Part shown: in pieces, positions 13,888-43,962 of the stretch
Numbering within the stretch: position 1 is the stretch's first letter
Layout of the letters: every line of letters starts with the position of its first letter
Origin: a virus
Length of the DNA stretch: 64,000 bases
Reading direction: 5' to 3' (one strand)
UHGV virus genome: UHGV-1440165
Made by a program: the position numbers and the translations under genes
Notes under the pieces: model-generated
The model's input: the letters and a program-made list of their open reading frames with translations, nothing else
Told to the model about the DNA's origin: nothing
Databases searched by the model: none

Positions 13888-14295
13888 ATGCGTTATGTAG
13901 ATCGTATGCTCGGCAAAGACGAGCACGTTATTGCCTTCACCCGCCCGACCTGGTGGAGCGGCTTCTGGATGTATGTGCTGGTTGTGCTGCTGTTTGTGCC
14001 AACCTTCGGTGTCAGTCTGTTGTTCCTGATTCCGACTGTGCTGAACGTGTTGACCACTGAATTCGCTGTGACCAACAAGCGTGTAATCGTCAAGCGCGGG
14101 TTCATCCGTCGTGATGCCGACGAACTGCGGATTGGTAAGGTTGAAACAGTGAAGGTCGATCAGTCCATCACAGGCCGCATCCTGGGCTTCTCGACCATCA
14201 GTGTGATCGGTACGGGTGGCACTCGCCTACTGGCCACGGGTTGTGCTGGCGGTAATGCCTTCCGCCAGAAGATCTATGACCACCTGGACGACTGA
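13888..14295 (+). CDS. Membrane-anchored protein, bacterial PH-domain (YdbT/DUF304-like) candidate
   Basis: N-terminal two TM helices then a beta-rich domain; motif-level call only. Confidence 0.4.
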   Translation: MRYVDRMLGKDEHVIAFTRPTWWSGFWMYVLVVLLFVPTFGVSLLFLIPTVLNVLTTEFAVTNKRVIVKRGFIRRDADELRIGKVETVKVDQSITGRILGFSTISVIGTGGTRLLATGCAGGNAFRQKIYDHLDD

Positions 14296-14297
14296 TT

Positions 14298-14510
14298 ATG
14301 ATTACTTCAGGTTACACCATTGACCTGTATTGTGAATGCTCTGACTGCAAGTCATGCAGCTGGGCTTGGGAAGAGCATCACCCCAAGTGTGGGTTCAAAC
14401 AATACGCTGGTGAGACTTGGGGTGAGTGTGTCAGACAGGCACGGGCTGATGGTTGGCAAATCGGGCGTGACAGGCATACCTGTTACGCCCCTGGGCACAA
14501 AAGAAGTTAG
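14298..14510 (+). CDS. Small Cys-rich protein, hypothetical
   Basis: 70 aa with CECSDCKSC ... HPKC ... HTC. Confidence 0.35.
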   Translation: MITSGYTIDLYCECSDCKSCSWAWEEHHPKCGFKQYAGETWGECVRQARADGWQIGRDRHTCYAPGHKRS

Positions 14511-15121
14511 GGCAGCAACAGTCCATCATCCCGCTCCGTTGGGGCGGGTCTTACTTCCTTCATCATCTGTTCTTTCAAGAATCTGACACGTTCGGCTCTA
14601 CGACGGTCTTCCATCTCCATATCCCGTTTCTTCTTCGACTTCAACTCGAACTGTTTCCTCACATCAGGATCTTCACCGGGTACGAGGTGCTCTTCAGTCC
14701 AGATAATGAACTTCCAGTTCTTCTTCGCACACAGCTCGCGGGTGGCCTCCCACTTGGCAGAGTTGACCAGCCAGGTTCGCATCGCATTGTTGAAGGTTGA
14801 TTCCTTCATAGATGGCGTCTTCTTCGGCTGCTTGATCTGATCCTTGGGCTTGATCTCAATGAGGGTGACCTGCAGTTCTTCCTGCCCTTCGCGGTGTGTC
14901 CACACTTTGAGGTCCATGAAGTAACGATGGGTGCGCCCGTCTACTGGCGACACATAGGGGATTACAGTCTCCTCGTTTTCCCAGAAAATGACAGCAGGAT
15001 TAGTGTCGCAAAATTTAAAGGCGACAAGTTCCAAAGAAGAACGAAATACAATTTTATTCAGATTACCTTTGTACTTTTTAGGATTGACAGGAACATATTT
15101 TCCTTGAAGATACTGTGCCAT
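14507..15121 (-). CDS. PD-(D/E)xK-like nuclease candidate
   Basis: D...ExK pattern (FMDLKVW ... TLIEIKP); ATG 15121 with GGAGG SD; ORF-track N-terminus is a TTG extension. Confidence 0.35.
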   Translation of the reverse strand: MAQYLQGKYVPVNPKKYKGNLNKIVFRSSLELVAFKFCDTNPAVIFWENEETVIPYVSPVDGRTHRYFMDLKVWTHREGQEELQVTLIEIKPKDQIKQPKKTPSMKESTFNNAMRTWLVNSAKWEATRELCAKKNWKFIIWTEEHLVPGEDPDVRKQFELKSKKKRDMEMEDRRRAERVRFLKEQMMKEVRPAPTERDDGLLLP

Positions 15122-15855
15122 TATGCTTTCCTCCAACCTTTATGCTGTATATAACGCCCTTTACTCACGTGTCGCATAGAACCTTCATTTAATCCATTCT
15201 CTTTACAAAATTTTGCCAGATTCACGATTGCCACGACATAACCTTCAGGATTGATGAATTTAAACTCTCTGGAGTTTGCTTTGGCTATTGATTCCCTGCC
15301 TTCCTTTGACATGTCTCCAGGACCTTTGAAATTCCACCTTCCTTCTTCTATGGCTTTCCTCTGCCCTGCTTTAACTCTGGATTTCAGATCTTCATCCAAC
15401 TTGACACCAAATCTTGGGTTATTTTCCCCTGAACGATCTTTCCCAAACCAAAAATTCCTAGAACCATTTAATGCCCTTGAACGATAAATCCTTTCCAGTT
15501 CTTCTTTTGGTTTGGAGAGCAATGTGTTCAATGCCTTGATGGACGCATGTTTTCTAGCCTCTGGGTTTGAATTAATGTGGTCGAATGATCCATATCCACC
15601 CAGCGTTAAATTGTATGTGTCTTCCCTTTTGATAAATTCTTTGGTCACTATTCTGGCTTCTTCCAGGTACATTTGTTCCTGGGTTTCACACTCCAACAAG
15701 ATGTCCTTTCTGAAGTTATCGACACCGTGTTTCCTGATTGCTCTCATTATCATATTGCCGGATCCCATATAACCATCATCCGGTTCACCTTTGTGAGCAC
15801 CAACATATATCTTGCCGTTTAGAAGATTCGTTATTTGGTAGACAAAGTATCTCAT
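15121..15855 (-). CDS. GIY-YIG homing endonuclease (Seg-like)
   Basis: N-terminal GIY-YIG module FVYQITNLLNGKIYVGAH ... R ... E; 244 aa; free-standing between unrelated genes. Confidence 0.8.
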   Translation of the reverse strand: MRYFVYQITNLLNGKIYVGAHKGEPDDGYMGSGNMIMRAIRKHGVDNFRKDILLECETQEQMYLEEARIVTKEFIKREDTYNLTLGGYGSFDHINSNPEARKHASIKALNTLLSKPKEELERIYRSRALNGSRNFWFGKDRSGENNPRFGVKLDEDLKSRVKAGQRKAIEEGRWNFKGPGDMSKEGRESIAKANSREFKFINPEGYVVAIVNLAKFCKENGLNEGSMRHVSKGRYIQHKGWRKA

Positions 15856-15905
15856 AATCTAGTCCTAAATAGCCATAACACTCTATCTATTTAAGGGCTG
15901 AGACC

Positions 15906-16874
15906 ATGGCCGACTTCAAGAAGACAATCGATAAGATCAAGGTTCTGAACACGAAGGGGTTGTCCCAGGCTCAGAAGCAATTGGCTTATCCCCTGGACAT
16001 CACGGGCGGCAAAACGCTTGGGCATTATGTGTTGTTCAACATCAACCGCATTTCCGGATCATCTTATGGTGACACGGCGACACAGACTATTGAGAACCCG
16101 ATCAAGAACCCGATCGGGAACACGCCTGTCGTCTACGGTGCCAAGTCCGGCTCCATCACCAAGTATGCCTGGGCGCGTCACGTTCGTTCCAACGAGTCCA
16201 TCGTCCTGTGTATGCCAGAGTCTATCACAACCAACTATGGTGTGGGCTGGAACGGTAGCGAACTCGGCCTGGCAGGTATGGGAGCGCAATTCCTGTCCCG
16301 CGCCGCCCAGGATATGACTCAGTTCAAGCTGGGTGATGCCCTGAACGTCGGGAAGGAGATGGGGCGCTTCGCTGCGACAAAGGCAGTTCAGTCTGCATCT
16401 GAGGCCATACCATTCCTCCCCACCATCAACGCCCACGACACGCTGGAGTTGTTCACTGGCACGATGACGAACCCGTATGTCGAGATGATCTTCCAGGGTG
16501 TGCGCAACCGTGAGATCCCATTCACATTCAAGTTCACGCCGCGCTCTCAGAAGGAAGCGAAGATGGTCCGTGAGATCATCCGGTTGTTCAAGTTGCACAT
16601 GTATCCAGAGTACAAGTACAACAAGAACTCCAGCGCATTCTACTTGCACCCGTCGACGTTCGATATCACCTTCATGGTGCAGGGTGAACGTAACAAGTGG
16701 CTGCATCGCATTTCCACTTGCGTTCTGTCTAACATGTTCGTGAACGAAACGCCGGATAGCTCTTATGCGGTTCACAAAGATGATGGCATCGTGTCCACAC
16801 AGGTTGACATGACCTTCATCGAACTCGAGCCTCTCCACAAAGGGCGCTTTGACACCGAAGGCGATAGCTTCTAA
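15906..16874 (+). CDS. Baseplate/tail-associated structural protein (gp48/gp54-like?)
   Basis: 322 aa; first gene of a + strand structural block ending with gp27- and gp29-like genes. Confidence 0.4.
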   Translation: MADFKKTIDKIKVLNTKGLSQAQKQLAYPLDITGGKTLGHYVLFNINRISGSSYGDTATQTIENPIKNPIGNTPVVYGAKSGSITKYAWARHVRSNESIVLCMPESITTNYGVGWNGSELGLAGMGAQFLSRAAQDMTQFKLGDALNVGKEMGRFAATKAVQSASEAIPFLPTINAHDTLELFTGTMTNPYVEMIFQGVRNREIPFTFKFTPRSQKEAKMVREIIRLFKLHMYPEYKYNKNSSAFYLHPSTFDITFMVQGERNKWLHRISTCVLSNMFVNETPDSSYAVHKDDGIVSTQVDMTFIELEPLHKGRFDTEGDSF

Positions 16875-16885
16875 GGGAGGATGGC

Positions 16886-17440
16886 ATGAAATACTTTGAG
16901 AAATTCCCCCTCGTCTGGCATCAGCTGGTTGATGTACAGGAGGATGACACTGTCCTGTTGCAGAACCTAACGCGACGGGTGATGATCTTACAGAAAATTA
17001 AGGACATCGAAGGGCTTCTCCTGCCTTATACGATCTTTGAGGGGGAAACCCCAAGATCCTTTGCCGAACGCGTCTACGGATCCTTCGAGCTGTTTTGGAT
17101 CCCTTGCCTTATCAATGGCATTATGGACATCAATAAGGACTGGCCGAAACCTGAGCAGCGGATCGTTGAAGAACTGATGGCCGACTATGGCATCGATGGG
17201 ATGTGGGACACTGCCTACTATGTCGACCAGTTCAACAACGTGACCGATGCTCGGGCGATAAAATTCGCATATGGCCTCGATCTGGATGAGCCGTCCATCA
17301 TTGCTAACTATGGTCTGACAGCAGTTTCATATCATGATGATGCAATCAGCAAGAACGAAGCCAAGAGGTCCATCAAAGTTCTGGATCCGGACTATGTGTC
17401 CAGCTTTGTGAATCAGCTTGAGCAGGAGTTGGCGAAATGA
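16886..17440 (+). CDS. Baseplate hub-associated protein (gp51/gp28-like?)
   Basis: 184-aa ORF coupled to the gp27-like gene. Confidence 0.3.
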   Translation: MKYFEKFPLVWHQLVDVQEDDTVLLQNLTRRVMILQKIKDIEGLLLPYTIFEGETPRSFAERVYGSFELFWIPCLINGIMDINKDWPKPEQRIVEELMADYGIDGMWDTAYYVDQFNNVTDARAIKFAYGLDLDEPSIIANYGLTAVSYHDDAISKNEAKRSIKVLDPDYVSSFVNQLEQELAK

Positions 17441-29889: not shown

Positions 29890-30372
29890 CTAACCTTGAT
29901 AAAATTCTCCGAACAATTCTTTGTAGGCTTTGTCTGCCATTTCCTTTGCTTCTTCGAATTCATCGTAATGCCCAAACGACCTGTATTTCCCATCAACTCT
30001 GATTTGCACACACCATCTACCCTTGTATCGAAATACACCCCTCGCGCCTGTGGTGTTGTGGCTATACAAATCTGTGTTGACGGCGTTCTGGCTTTTATTG
30101 GATTCTCTAAGGTTCAACCAGCGGTTGTCGTCTCTTATACGATTTTTGTGGTCGACCAATTTCTTTGGCCATGAACCAGTTTTATAGAGAAATGCCAACC
30201 TGTGTTCTAAATGCTTCTTCTCGCCGATTCTTATAGCCCTGTATCCGTCAGGTTTTAAAGACCCAGCTCTTGTTCCGGCTTTGGCAGTACCACCACGATC
30301 CGTCAACCATGTAAACCACCCAGTGTCTTCGTCGTAATGCAGAATTTCTTTAAGAGACTGTTGTGTTAACAT
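29890..30372 (-). CDS. HNH homing endonuclease with AP2-like DNA-binding domain
   Basis: YDEDTGWFTW N-terminal motif, HKNRIRDDNRWLNL HNH core, AP2-like GVFRYKGRWCVQIRVDGKYRSFGHYDEFEEA. Confidence 0.7.
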   Translation of the reverse strand: MLTQQSLKEILHYDEDTGWFTWLTDRGGTAKAGTRAGSLKPDGYRAIRIGEKKHLEHRLAFLYKTGSWPKKLVDHKNRIRDDNRWLNLRESNKSQNAVNTDLYSHNTTGARGVFRYKGRWCVQIRVDGKYRSFGHYDEFEEAKEMADKAYKELFGEFYQG

Positions 30373-42060: not shown

Positions 42061-42111
42061 GTAAATAGCCCATAACGAAGTTTCATTGGTGTATGGGCTA
42101 TTTACGCCGGA

Positions 42112-42603
42112 TTAACGGGTGATGATTTTACCTTCAGGCAGGATCAGGCCTGGATGGTCCAGGTTCTTCTGCATCTGCTGGATGCTCTGGAGGATCACGG
42201 TGGTGTCAATATGGCGTTTCACTTTACGCGCTTCCTCGCCATAAGAAATCTGCCCCTGGGGGTCGATGTAATGAGCTGACACAACCCGCAGATCATAGCC
42301 ACATTTCAACATATACTTGGCAATGTTGCTAACTTCCAGCGACAGTGATTCACCATCCACGCCGATGTTAGCCGAATAGATGACCGCGCCGTTTTCTGCC
42401 GCCTCTGGATCGAACATCACCATACCAGCGATCGTCTGGATCAAAGGAACTCCCTCGGTATCGAAAGCTACCTGATCGAACGCGCCGATGAACTCATCCG
42501 GCACTTTACCTTCGGCGTCAGAAACTGTATGTTTCATCAGGTCCAGAACGTGTTGCTGTACTTCCTCAATCGGAGCACGTTCAACGGGTTTTTCGTTTTG
42601 CAT
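42112..42603 (-). CDS. Hypothetical protein
   Basis: Internal Met start MQNEKPVE...; ORF-track N-terminus overlaps the upstream gene. Confidence 0.4.
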   Translation of the reverse strand: MQNEKPVERAPIEEVQQHVLDLMKHTVSDAEGKVPDEFIGAFDQVAFDTEGVPLIQTIAGMVMFDPEAAENGAVIYSANIGVDGESLSLEVSNIAKYMLKCGYDLRVVSAHYIDPQGQISYGEEARKVKRHIDTTVILQSIQQMQKNLDHPGLILPEGKIITR

Positions 42604-43111
42604 TACTTTTCTCCAGTTCATAATCGCGCTCCACAACATATTGGTAGACACGCATCTTAATATAGTCGGCACCGCCTGCTGAAGACAGCACCCTCCATCC
42701 ACTACTGAGGGCATTCATCTTATATTGACCAACACCCTCTTGAAAATAACTTTTAATCTGTTCCAGCTTTCGCCCACGATGATAATAAGAGATGAGTTCG
42801 CCGATGACAATACATTCTGGATAATGTTTGTCCAATGTATTGATGTTGCGGTGGACATACACGGGCAAAACTTCCTCATCATCGATAGGGCTGTACAATG
42901 GGTCGACGATGATTACATTCAGACCATAACGCAGCAGATCTTTGACGCCCAGTCGACAGAACTTATAATCTTCGTGCTTCATCGCCACATATTCGATATT
43001 CTCTTTCTGAGCATAATCCGTCAAGAAAATAAAGAAGTCTGTGTTGGGATCTGGATATTGTATCGACAATTCCTTGCCGATTTCACTAAAACAAAATCCG
43101 CGCATTTTCAT
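42581..43111 (-). CDS. Hypothetical protein
   Basis: 176-aa ORF. Confidence 0.45.
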   Translation of the reverse strand: MKMRGFCFSEIGKELSIQYPDPNTDFFIFLTDYAQKENIEYVAMKHEDYKFCRLGVKDLLRYGLNVIIVDPLYSPIDDEEVLPVYVHRNINTLDKHYPECIVIGELISYYHRGRKLEQIKSYFQEGVGQYKMNALSSGWRVLSSAGGADYIKMRVYQYVVERDYELEKSNAKRKTR

Positions 43112-43155: not shown

Positions 43156-43962
43156 ATGAAATTGCCTTCATTGCCCAGAACGGAAAAGACGTTCAAAAGT
43201 GATTTTTGGCCGAGTGTTATCAAATACCGCGCTTTCACTGCCGGGCAACAAACCCTCATGCTGCAGGTGGCAGATCCAAACACTCCGGTAGCCGAACGCG
43301 CCGAGATCATGGAGAGCCTGTTTGCAGATTGTGTTGAAGCTGGAGCACCGTTCAACAAATTACCCATCGGTGTGGTTGAAGAAGTGTTCATCCGCATGCG
43401 CAGTATCGCTATTGGCGAGCTGATGAAGATTCGTTACAAGTGCAATAACCCTATCGAAGAAACAACCGACCTCGGTGATGGCGAATCCAGAAAAGAAATG
43501 GTTCCGTGTGGGCAAGAACTGACTCTGCCGATCCCCCTCTTGAACGTGAAATGCGTGGCAAAGGAAGGGTTCAAAGAGGTCTTCGACCTGCCTGGTGGTT
43601 ATCACCTGAAGATGCGCCAGCCGTCCTTCGCTGATGCCACCGCGCTGTCCGAATCGGCAAGTGTTGAGCAAATGCTGGCCACCTTTATCGACTGCTTGTA
43701 CGATGACGACGGCCAGGTGTGGAGTGTTGAGAACCCTGATGAACCGGGTATCAAGCCGGAAGATGCTATCGAGCGCCGTCGTGTCAAAGAAGCGTTTATC
43801 GAATGGGTGAAAGATAACCTCGAATCAGATGTCATCGAGGATATCACCAAGAACTTCTTCCATAAGATTCCTCGCATCCACTACAAGAACAAGATCAAGT
43901 GTCCAAAATGTGGTAAAGAACACCCGATCGAGTTCAACAGCATTAATGAAATTTTCATCTAA
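43156..43962 (+). CDS. Putative baseplate protein with C-terminal zinc ribbon (gp26/gp53-like?)
   Basis: 268 aa; late-promoter motif upstream; lies just upstream of the gp5-like gene; C-terminal CPKCGKEH. Confidence 0.4.
   Translation: MKLPSLPRTEKTFKSDFWPSVIKYRAFTAGQQTLMLQVADPNTPVAERAEIMESLFADCVEAGAPFNKLPIGVVEEVFIRMRSIAIGELMKIRYKCNNPIEETTDLGDGESRKEMVPCGQELTLPIPLLNVKCVAKEGFKEVFDLPGGYHLKMRQPSFADATALSESASVEQMLATFIDCLYDDDGQVWSVENPDEPGIKPEDAIERRRVKEAFIEWVKDNLESDVIEDITKNFFHKIPRIHYKNKIKCPKCGKEHPIEFNSINEIFI

Follow-up and report, generated by a model that had tools for sequence, protein, structure and literature searches.

An F-LimII-family GIY-YIG homing endonuclease gene and its linked gp4 tract at the gp48-gp4 junction of an Agtrevirus-like phage

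Between a gene for a baseplate protein and a gene for a head completion protein, the virus genome UHGV-1440165, analysed here as one stretch of 64,000 nucleotides (the window), carries a minus-strand gene for a GIY-YIG protein, and the locus raises the question of whether this gene is, or has recently been, a mobile element and what would travel along with it. Megablast assigns the window to Ackermannviridae, as an Agtrevirus-like phage, with Salmonella phage pSal-SNUABM-02 (Agtrevirus) as the best match (97.6% over the locus and 95.5% over the first 25 kb) and Yersinia phage CAU_YEP3 as the next (95%). The gene order is gp48 (baseplate tail-tube cap, plus strand), endonuclease (minus strand), and gp4 (head completion, minus strand). 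The comparisons set out below make it highly probable that the gene encodes a free-standing GIY-YIG homing endonuclease of the F-LimII family that is active or has recently been so, with a cleavage activity that we infer.

The ORF listing of the window bears out the coordinates, the minus strand, and the length of 244 aa reported in the first-pass annotation, and it gives an ATG start. The gene and the parts of its product are the following:

15121-15855, minus strand: GIY-YIG homing endonuclease gene, F-LimII family (ORF, Pfam, PHROG, AlphaFold, Foldseek, invariant residues, dN/dS)
Residues 1-90 of the endonuclease: GIY-YIG domain
Residues ~98-193 of the endonuclease: NUMOD3-like helices and linker
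Residues ~195-244 of the endonuclease: C-terminal DNA-binding domain, I-HmuI-like

The initial description of the product as a Seg-like GIY-YIG protein is upheld by Pfam and PHROG matches, by a fold match to I-TevI, and by 40% identity to the T4 segC locus. Specifically, residues 1-243 match PHROG 314 'homing endonuclease' (3e-44), and the Pfam model SegE_GIY-YIG (PF19835) scores 33.3 bits, above its cut-off of 25, while the generic GIY-YIG model PF01541 (20.0 against a cut-off of 22.6) and the NUMOD3 model fall slightly under their cut-offs and TIGR01453 reaches 39.9, under its cut-off of 56. The AlphaFold model, built on 43 homologues, has a mean pLDDT of 82, with values >90 in both terminal domains, including residues 1-80. 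In Foldseek, the N-terminal domain hits the catalytic domain of I-TevI (1LN0/1MK0; probability 1.0, target TM 0.65-0.67) and the C-terminal part hits the HNH enzyme I-HmuI (1U3E) at its DNA-binding end, in agreement with phmmer, by which both I-TevI and I-HmuI are matched. The GIY-YIG motifs VYQ (residues 5-7) and YVG (residues 17-19) align to the GIY and YVG of I-TevI, and the residues Y6, Y17, E66, and N82, invariant in 43/43 homologues, are all present in the window protein. E66 and N82 fall in the aligned helix and YN motif (cf. I-TevI E75 and N90), with a HMMER register that is shifted by one or two residues near I-TevI E75. An alignment gap lies opposite the catalytic arginine R27 of I-TevI; position 27 of the endonuclease is an invariant Asp, and the subfamily invariants near this region are H21, D27, Y29, and S32 (43 homologues). 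Pairwise dN/dS is ~0.06-0.13 across the family, where dS is estimable, and 0.13 against the nearest allele; the protein is therefore under purifying selection.

The modular order of catalytic domain, linker, and DNA-binding domain is common to the endonuclease, I-TevI, and I-HmuI. The N-terminal domain shares the catalytic fold of I-TevI at 27% identity, with the R27 region absent from the alignment, and the last 60 aa of the protein are similar to the DNA-binding end of I-HmuI, whose catalytic domain, however, is HNH and not GIY-YIG. I-TevI and I-HmuI are intron-encoded, whereas the window endonuclease is free-standing, as had been proposed: it is a separate ORF at the former gp48-gp4 intergenic junction, outside any intron. 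A group I intron or intein context is ruled out by this separate ORF and by the absence of any Rfam match in 14000-17000 at E up to 1; tblastn finds no paralogues of the endonuclease in the 64-kb window. The gene is like the T4 Seg family (SegA-G), whose members are free-standing GIY-YIG endonucleases, promoter-less on host operons, and sporadic (PMC2988022). The best T4 tblastn match is SegC, encoded at the segC locus between 5.1 and 5.3, with the 40% identity confined to aa 3-164, no similarity in the C-terminal third, a different locus, and a different target; SegC is thus rejected as an orthologue and kept as a relative only. The activity of SegC is experimentally shown, whereas the window endonuclease is known from sequence and predicted structure.

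The family to which the gene belongs already has a name. F-LimII was named in 2012 in Dickeya phage vB_DsoM_LIMEstone1, where the annotation gives a free-standing GIY-YIG endonuclease followed by the head completion gene (PMC3296691), and the window gene is a divergent mosaic addition to this family. Homologues occupy the same gp48-gp4 junction in Limestonevirus, Taipeivirus, and some Kuttervirus phages, the carriers being LIMEstone1, Taipeivirus KpS110 and K5lambda5, Kuttervirus Det7, and three contigs, namely L010 from an E. coli assembly and the Logan contigs L011 and L012; the flanking genes are identical in 8/8 loci inspected. F-LimII (ORF22, YP_007237344), Det7 gene 130, KpS110 gp055, and the PhiSH19 homologue have the same position and orientation as the window gene at the gp48-gp4 junction, and the group, at 244-246 aa and 64-68% aa identity, has the domain order and the TAATG overlap with gp4 in common with it. 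Unlike this group, the window copy sits in an Agtrevirus-like backbone, where the records of the phage collection carry none.

Over 99-100% of its length, the window protein is 64-78% identical in aa to its homologues, except for L011 (99%), which is intact and represents the same phage in a Logan sequencing run. L011 is rejected on this ground as a donor of the window allele, and there is no other near-identical copy. The closest annotated allele, P0002 of L010 ('hypothetical protein MKK42_21810', GCA_022664555.1), has 78% aa identity and the same position. The backbone of L010 is of Agtrevirus type like that of the window, to which it is ~86% identical, and the nearest relatives of L010, including A221, are without the gene; its linker is of the common F-LimII type, not the window type. 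L010 itself is a 20.6-kb contig (JAKSXQ010000059.1) in an E. coli assembly, its protein labelled 'hypothetical protein [Escherichia coli]', and it is probably phage DNA brought along in culture.

The fixed position is accompanied by a sporadic distribution. When related phages are compared for presence and absence, as the first-pass annotation had suggested for a gene that it took to be mobile, the gene is missing from the two closest relatives (pSal-SNUABM-02 and CAU_YEP3) and from Ag3, as it is from A221, and four pairs with and without it can be formed: the window and pSal-SNUABM-02, L010 and A221 (a second Agtrevirus pair), one Kuttervirus pair, and one Taipeivirus pair. Most Kuttervirus phages lack it, as do all Agtrevirus records of the phage collection; at the Det7 locus, 39/218 matching records reach the coverage of at least 80% that requires the gene, while the Dickeya phage (Limestonevirus) records match the gene region at full length in 19/19 cases. 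Universal presence in related phages, which would speak against mobility, is not observed. Invaded, empty, and apparently decaying alleles all exist at the gp48-gp4 junction.

Some Limestonevirus copies are frameshifted. In Dickeya phage RC-2014 (L093 ~820-1612), the F-LimII homologue is split by one extra G at ~codon 127 and is unannotated; four further records, phiDP10.3, XF4, and Ds5CZ among them, have the same one-base-longer match, and the copy of Kamild is annotated as frameshifted. Frameshifts of the RC-2014 type are either decaying alleles or homopolymer sequencing errors.

The sole real difference between the window and pSal-SNUABM-02 at this locus is an 884-bp block that consists of the gene and of gp4 nt 1-150, and gp4 is accordingly divided into two parts:

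14972-15121, minus strand: gp4 nt 1-150, endonuclease-linked recoded tract (54 differences from pSal-SNUABM-02 in 150 nt)
14507-14971, minus strand: rest of gp4, nt 151-615, backbone-type (10 differences from pSal-SNUABM-02 in 465 nt)

Identity to pSal-SNUABM-02 is 64% in gp4 nt 1-150 and ~98% in the remaining gp4, with the last tract difference at 14972, and the gp48 side is identical for 166 nt, which comprise the 50-bp intergenic region plus 116 nt at the start of gp48. The difference reflects either a gain in the window lineage or a loss in the pSal-SNUABM-02 lineage. The same division recurs in each near-isogenic pair (allele with the gene / allele without it; mismatches in gp4 nt 1-150, then in the rest of gp4):

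Window / pSal-SNUABM-02: 54; 10
L010 / A221: 51; 16
Det7 / moki: 42; 7
K5lambda5 / L023: 38; 11

In the Det7/moki and K5lambda5/L023 pairs, most mismatches in the rest of gp4 lie at nt 151-162, and the boundary of the replaced block is constant in 4/4 pairs, at gp4 nt 147-162.

The composition of the block is foreign to its surroundings. GC is 0.39-0.42 over the endonuclease gene vs ~0.50 in the flanks, and GC3 is 0.40 in the gene vs 0.67-0.72 in the neighbouring genes. The linked gp4 tract matches the low GC of the endonuclease gene: its GC3 is 0.32 in the window and 0.74 in pSal-SNUABM-02, and, among the 50%-GC Aglimvirinae backbones, 0.32-0.50 in alleles with the gene vs 0.70-0.76 in alleles without it. 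The window tract shares 88% identity with that of L010 and 62-74% with every other one. Whereas gp4 nt 157-end yield a tree that follows the genera, nt 1-150 yield a different one, in which alleles are grouped by endonuclease status only in part and the tracts of the window and L010 stand together as a separate lineage, apart from those of the Kuttervirus, Taipeivirus, and Limestonevirus carriers. Among Kuttervirus and Taipeivirus phages, the gene opens with the same 12 nt as gp4 does where the gene is missing. Judged from these sequence comparisons, the gene and its recoded gp4 tract would represent the usual footprint of homing, with a co-converted flank.

A natural chimera is found in Salmonella phage PM10 (L008, gp4 703-1323), a Kuttervirus without the gene whose gp4 is nearly that of Det7 except for nt 6-36, which are of the gene-less type. 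The PM10 gp4 seems to be the product of a partial conversion or the scar left by a loss, and it could narrow the target/immunity region.

The neighbours of the gene can now be assigned. The minus-strand gene at 14507-15121 encodes the gp4 head completion protein (PHROG 218, 2e-56; Pfam TnsA-like N, 1e-17). It had been labelled a nuclease-fold gene, a label that the TnsA-like nuclease fold of gp4 explains and that is right as to the fold, while the identity of the protein as the gp4 head completion protein had gone unrecognised. A TTG start of gp4 at 15136 is rejected, the real start being the ATG at 15121, and the neighbour should be annotated as gp4 head completion protein with its start at 15121, while 15121-15855 should be annotated as an F-LimII-family (Seg-like) GIY-YIG homing endonuclease. 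On the plus strand, position 15906 opens a series of genes for the gp48 tail-tube cap, the gp53 wedge, a hub/tail protein of 462 aa, and the tape-measure protein, so that the transcription opposite to the structural genes described in the first pass holds for this block and does not hold for gp4, which is co-directional with the endonuclease.

The gene is closely integrated into the expression signals of gp4, which include the following elements:

15130-15134, minus strand: GGAGG Shine-Dalgarno for gp4, within the last endonuclease codons (GWRKA and stop), 8 nt upstream of the gp4 ATG
15856-15905: divergent intergenic region of 50 bp, identical to pSal-SNUABM-02
15887-15893, minus strand, and 15866-15872, plus strand: late-promoter-like TAAATAG boxes, an opposed pair in the 50-bp intergenic region
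15863-15866, minus strand: AGGA ribosome-binding site that now serves the endonuclease instead of gp4

The endonuclease stop overlaps the gp4 start as TAATG (15119-15123), and the 3' end of the endonuclease gene is conserved across genera (86-100% in the last alignment bin). No sigma-70-like promoter is found in 14200-16100, and boxes equivalent to TAAATAG are annotated in LIMEstone1 as putative late promoters. On the basis of these motifs, the expression of the endonuclease is provisionally assigned to the shared late-promoter-like TAAATAG boxes; the gene lies directly upstream of gp4 and probably has a common transcript with it.

Other features of the window touch on these signals and on the variability of the region. 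Outside the 50-bp intergenic region, TAAATAG boxes occur in the 64-kb window only as one more opposed pair, at 42062-42068 (plus strand) and 42098-42104 (minus strand), which adjoins a low-GC ORF (42581-43111, minus strand) and a baseplate hub gene (43156-43962, plus strand), just upstream of both, and this region may be another divergent late-promoter region. On the far side of gp4, between a PH-domain membrane protein and the gp4 3' end, a small plus-strand gene (14298-14510) varies in length, with 70 aa in the window, 42 aa in pSal-SNUABM-02 (L001 1970-2098), and 119 aa in CAU_YEP3 (L002 1948-2307), and is a second variable spot. In LIMEstone1, F-LimIII (Hef-like, 547 aa; L003 4572-6215) is inserted between gp48 and gp53, where the window has a gap of 11 nt only (16875-16885). 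Elsewhere, a 160-aa HNH endonuclease gene (29890-30372, minus strand; PHROG 99, 2e-63), located in a low-GC dip of 0.42-0.44, is a putative second homing endonuclease.

The endonuclease gene is itself a mosaic, in which two segments stand out:

15697-15855, minus strand: 5' segment, gene nt ~1-159 (aa 1-53), near-identical to LIMEstone1 F-LimII, with few nt differences
15290-15405, minus strand: window-specific linker, aa ~151-188 (VKLDEDLKSRVKAGQRKAIEEGRWNFKGPGDMS), which differs from 7/7 other alleles compared

The first 53 aa of the window protein are identical to F-LimII, and past nt ~159 the gene is 40-85% identical to it in nt. The backbones of the window and LIMEstone1 are ~85% identical, and the near-identity of the 5' end against this background points to a recent exchange between alleles. 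Most of the gene past the 5' segment is 82-94% identical to L010. For the linker at aa ~151-188, no closer donor is present in the phage collection, where the best tblastn match has 46% aa identity, and its import from another endonuclease family is rejected on this value; a compensated double frameshift is likewise rejected, with an nt identity of 38-58% and no simple indel pattern. Mosaicism of the gene and of its flanks supports the early suggestion that the locus is a recombination hotspot. A further mosaic is found in Dickeya phage Ds16CZ (L094 822-1760), whose F-LimII allele has aa ~33-47 of the Kuttervirus/Taipeivirus type and whose gp48 5' end is of Agtrevirus type, not LIMEstone1 type, which adds to the evidence for inter-genus exchange at the gp48-gp4 locus.

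A mechanism can be proposed by analogy with the free-standing endonucleases of T4, which are known to be cassettes without a promoter and to cause co-conversion and marker exclusion (PMC2988022, PMC2330249). The endonuclease cassette would have no promoter of its own and would sit at the former gp4 start, borrowing the late promoter and the ribosome-binding site of gp4, while its 3' end would give gp4 a new Shine-Dalgarno and an overlapping TAATG start, and gp4 expression would therefore be preserved. As T4 seg biology suggests (PMC2988022, PMC2330249), the enzyme would cut the allele without the gene, after which the break would be resected and then repaired from the endonuclease-carrying genome, a repair that would copy the gene and the linked 150-nt gp4 tract together. 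The linked tract, ~30% divergent, is presumably uncleaved. Crossovers would resolve just past the tract, at ~gp4 nt 150, where homology resumes, because the tract would be too diverged to recombine. The constancy of the boundary at gp4 nt 147-162 would follow from this.

From the comparative pattern as a whole, we infer cleavage, the location of its target, and the immunity of the linked tract. Most plausibly, the target would lie in the gp4 5' end. The motif CAGGGGAA, at gp4 nt 16-23, is kept in 15/15 distinct gene-less alleles of the invaded genera and altered in 7/8 distinct alleles with the gene, L012 being the carrier that keeps it, and it is missing from three distant gene-less alleles. 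As a single diagnostic target motif, CAGGGGAA is rejected and it represents a tendency, and no position in gp4 nt 1-170 splits all alleles with the gene from all alleles without it. The cleavage sites of free-standing endonucleases are often hundreds to thousands of bp away from the gene (PMC2988022), so that the 150-nt tract need not contain the target. The LIMEstone1 paper gives F-LimII as an annotation only (PMC3296691), and a demonstrated cleavage activity was not found in the literature for any member of the F-LimII family. The DNA of Ackermannviridae carries hypermodified thymidine, which could affect cleavage by the endonuclease.

Two other explanations of the locus deserve consideration. 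The gene could be a decaying remnant, once mobile and now catalytically dead, that is kept since its 3' end supplies the ribosome-binding site and start context of gp4. The gp4 Shine-Dalgarno and start, within or overlapping the endonuclease 3' end, fit this idea, as an imprecise deletion would be lethal, and so do the frameshifted copies in Limestonevirus, including the Kamild annotation, the 38-aa linker segment unique to the window allele, and the lack of an aligned equivalent of I-TevI R27. However, the ORF of 244 aa is intact, the residues invariant in 43 homologues are all present, the dN/dS values (0.13 vs the nearest allele and 0.06-0.13 family-wide) are not those expected of a pseudogene, and the 99%-identical copy from an independent sequencing run (L011) is likewise intact, all of which makes a dead remnant rather unlikely.

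Alternatively, the protein could have been domesticated as a nuclease or regulator, kept for the exclusion of competitors or for autoregulation of the gp4 late operon, with the mosaic pattern resulting from ordinary recombination in co-infection. I-TevI represses its own promoter and offers a model for such autoregulation. Strong purifying selection, the presence of the gene in 19/19 Limestonevirus records, and its place at the head of an essential late operon are compatible with domestication, and marker exclusion by seg genes favours the carrier (PMC2988022). Nevertheless, the gene is dispensable, since most Kuttervirus phages and all Agtrevirus records of the phage collection do without it, and frameshifted alleles are viable; moreover, the exchanged block begins exactly at the gene and has one fixed end in four independent pairs, a regularity that fits break-initiated conversion better than random recombination. 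Competitor exclusion also shares the cleavage mechanism of homing and is hardly a separate explanation, and domestication is on balance very improbable.

The reading preferred here, an active or recently active homing endonuclease, can be extended in a form that we offer tentatively, as possible and somewhat short of even confidence. In this extension, the mobile unit would be a fixed composite cassette made of the gene and of the recoded, cleavage-immune first 50 codons of gp4; its 3' end would rebuild the gp4 translation signals, its 5' end in Kuttervirus and Taipeivirus would reuse the first four codons of gp4, and the cassette would have crossed genus and host boundaries in Ackermannviridae. 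The window copy would then be a low-GC import into a 50%-GC Agtrevirus backbone, which would later have swapped the 5' part of its catalytic domain with a Dickeya-phage allele and whose linker would be evolving to a new specificity.

Four near-isogenic pairs from three genera that differ only by the gene and the 150-nt tract constitute a clean natural experiment, and the mapping of the cleavage site and the testing of tract immunity should therefore be straightforward. The comparative footprint is unusually clean, yet it conforms to known intronless homing and leaves the current understanding of homing endonucleases unchanged. If active on hypermodified-thymidine DNA, the endonuclease would be of some enzymological interest. 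Lastly, Ackermannviridae are used in biocontrol and therapy, and elements of this kind can redistribute flanking alleles between the phages of a cocktail.
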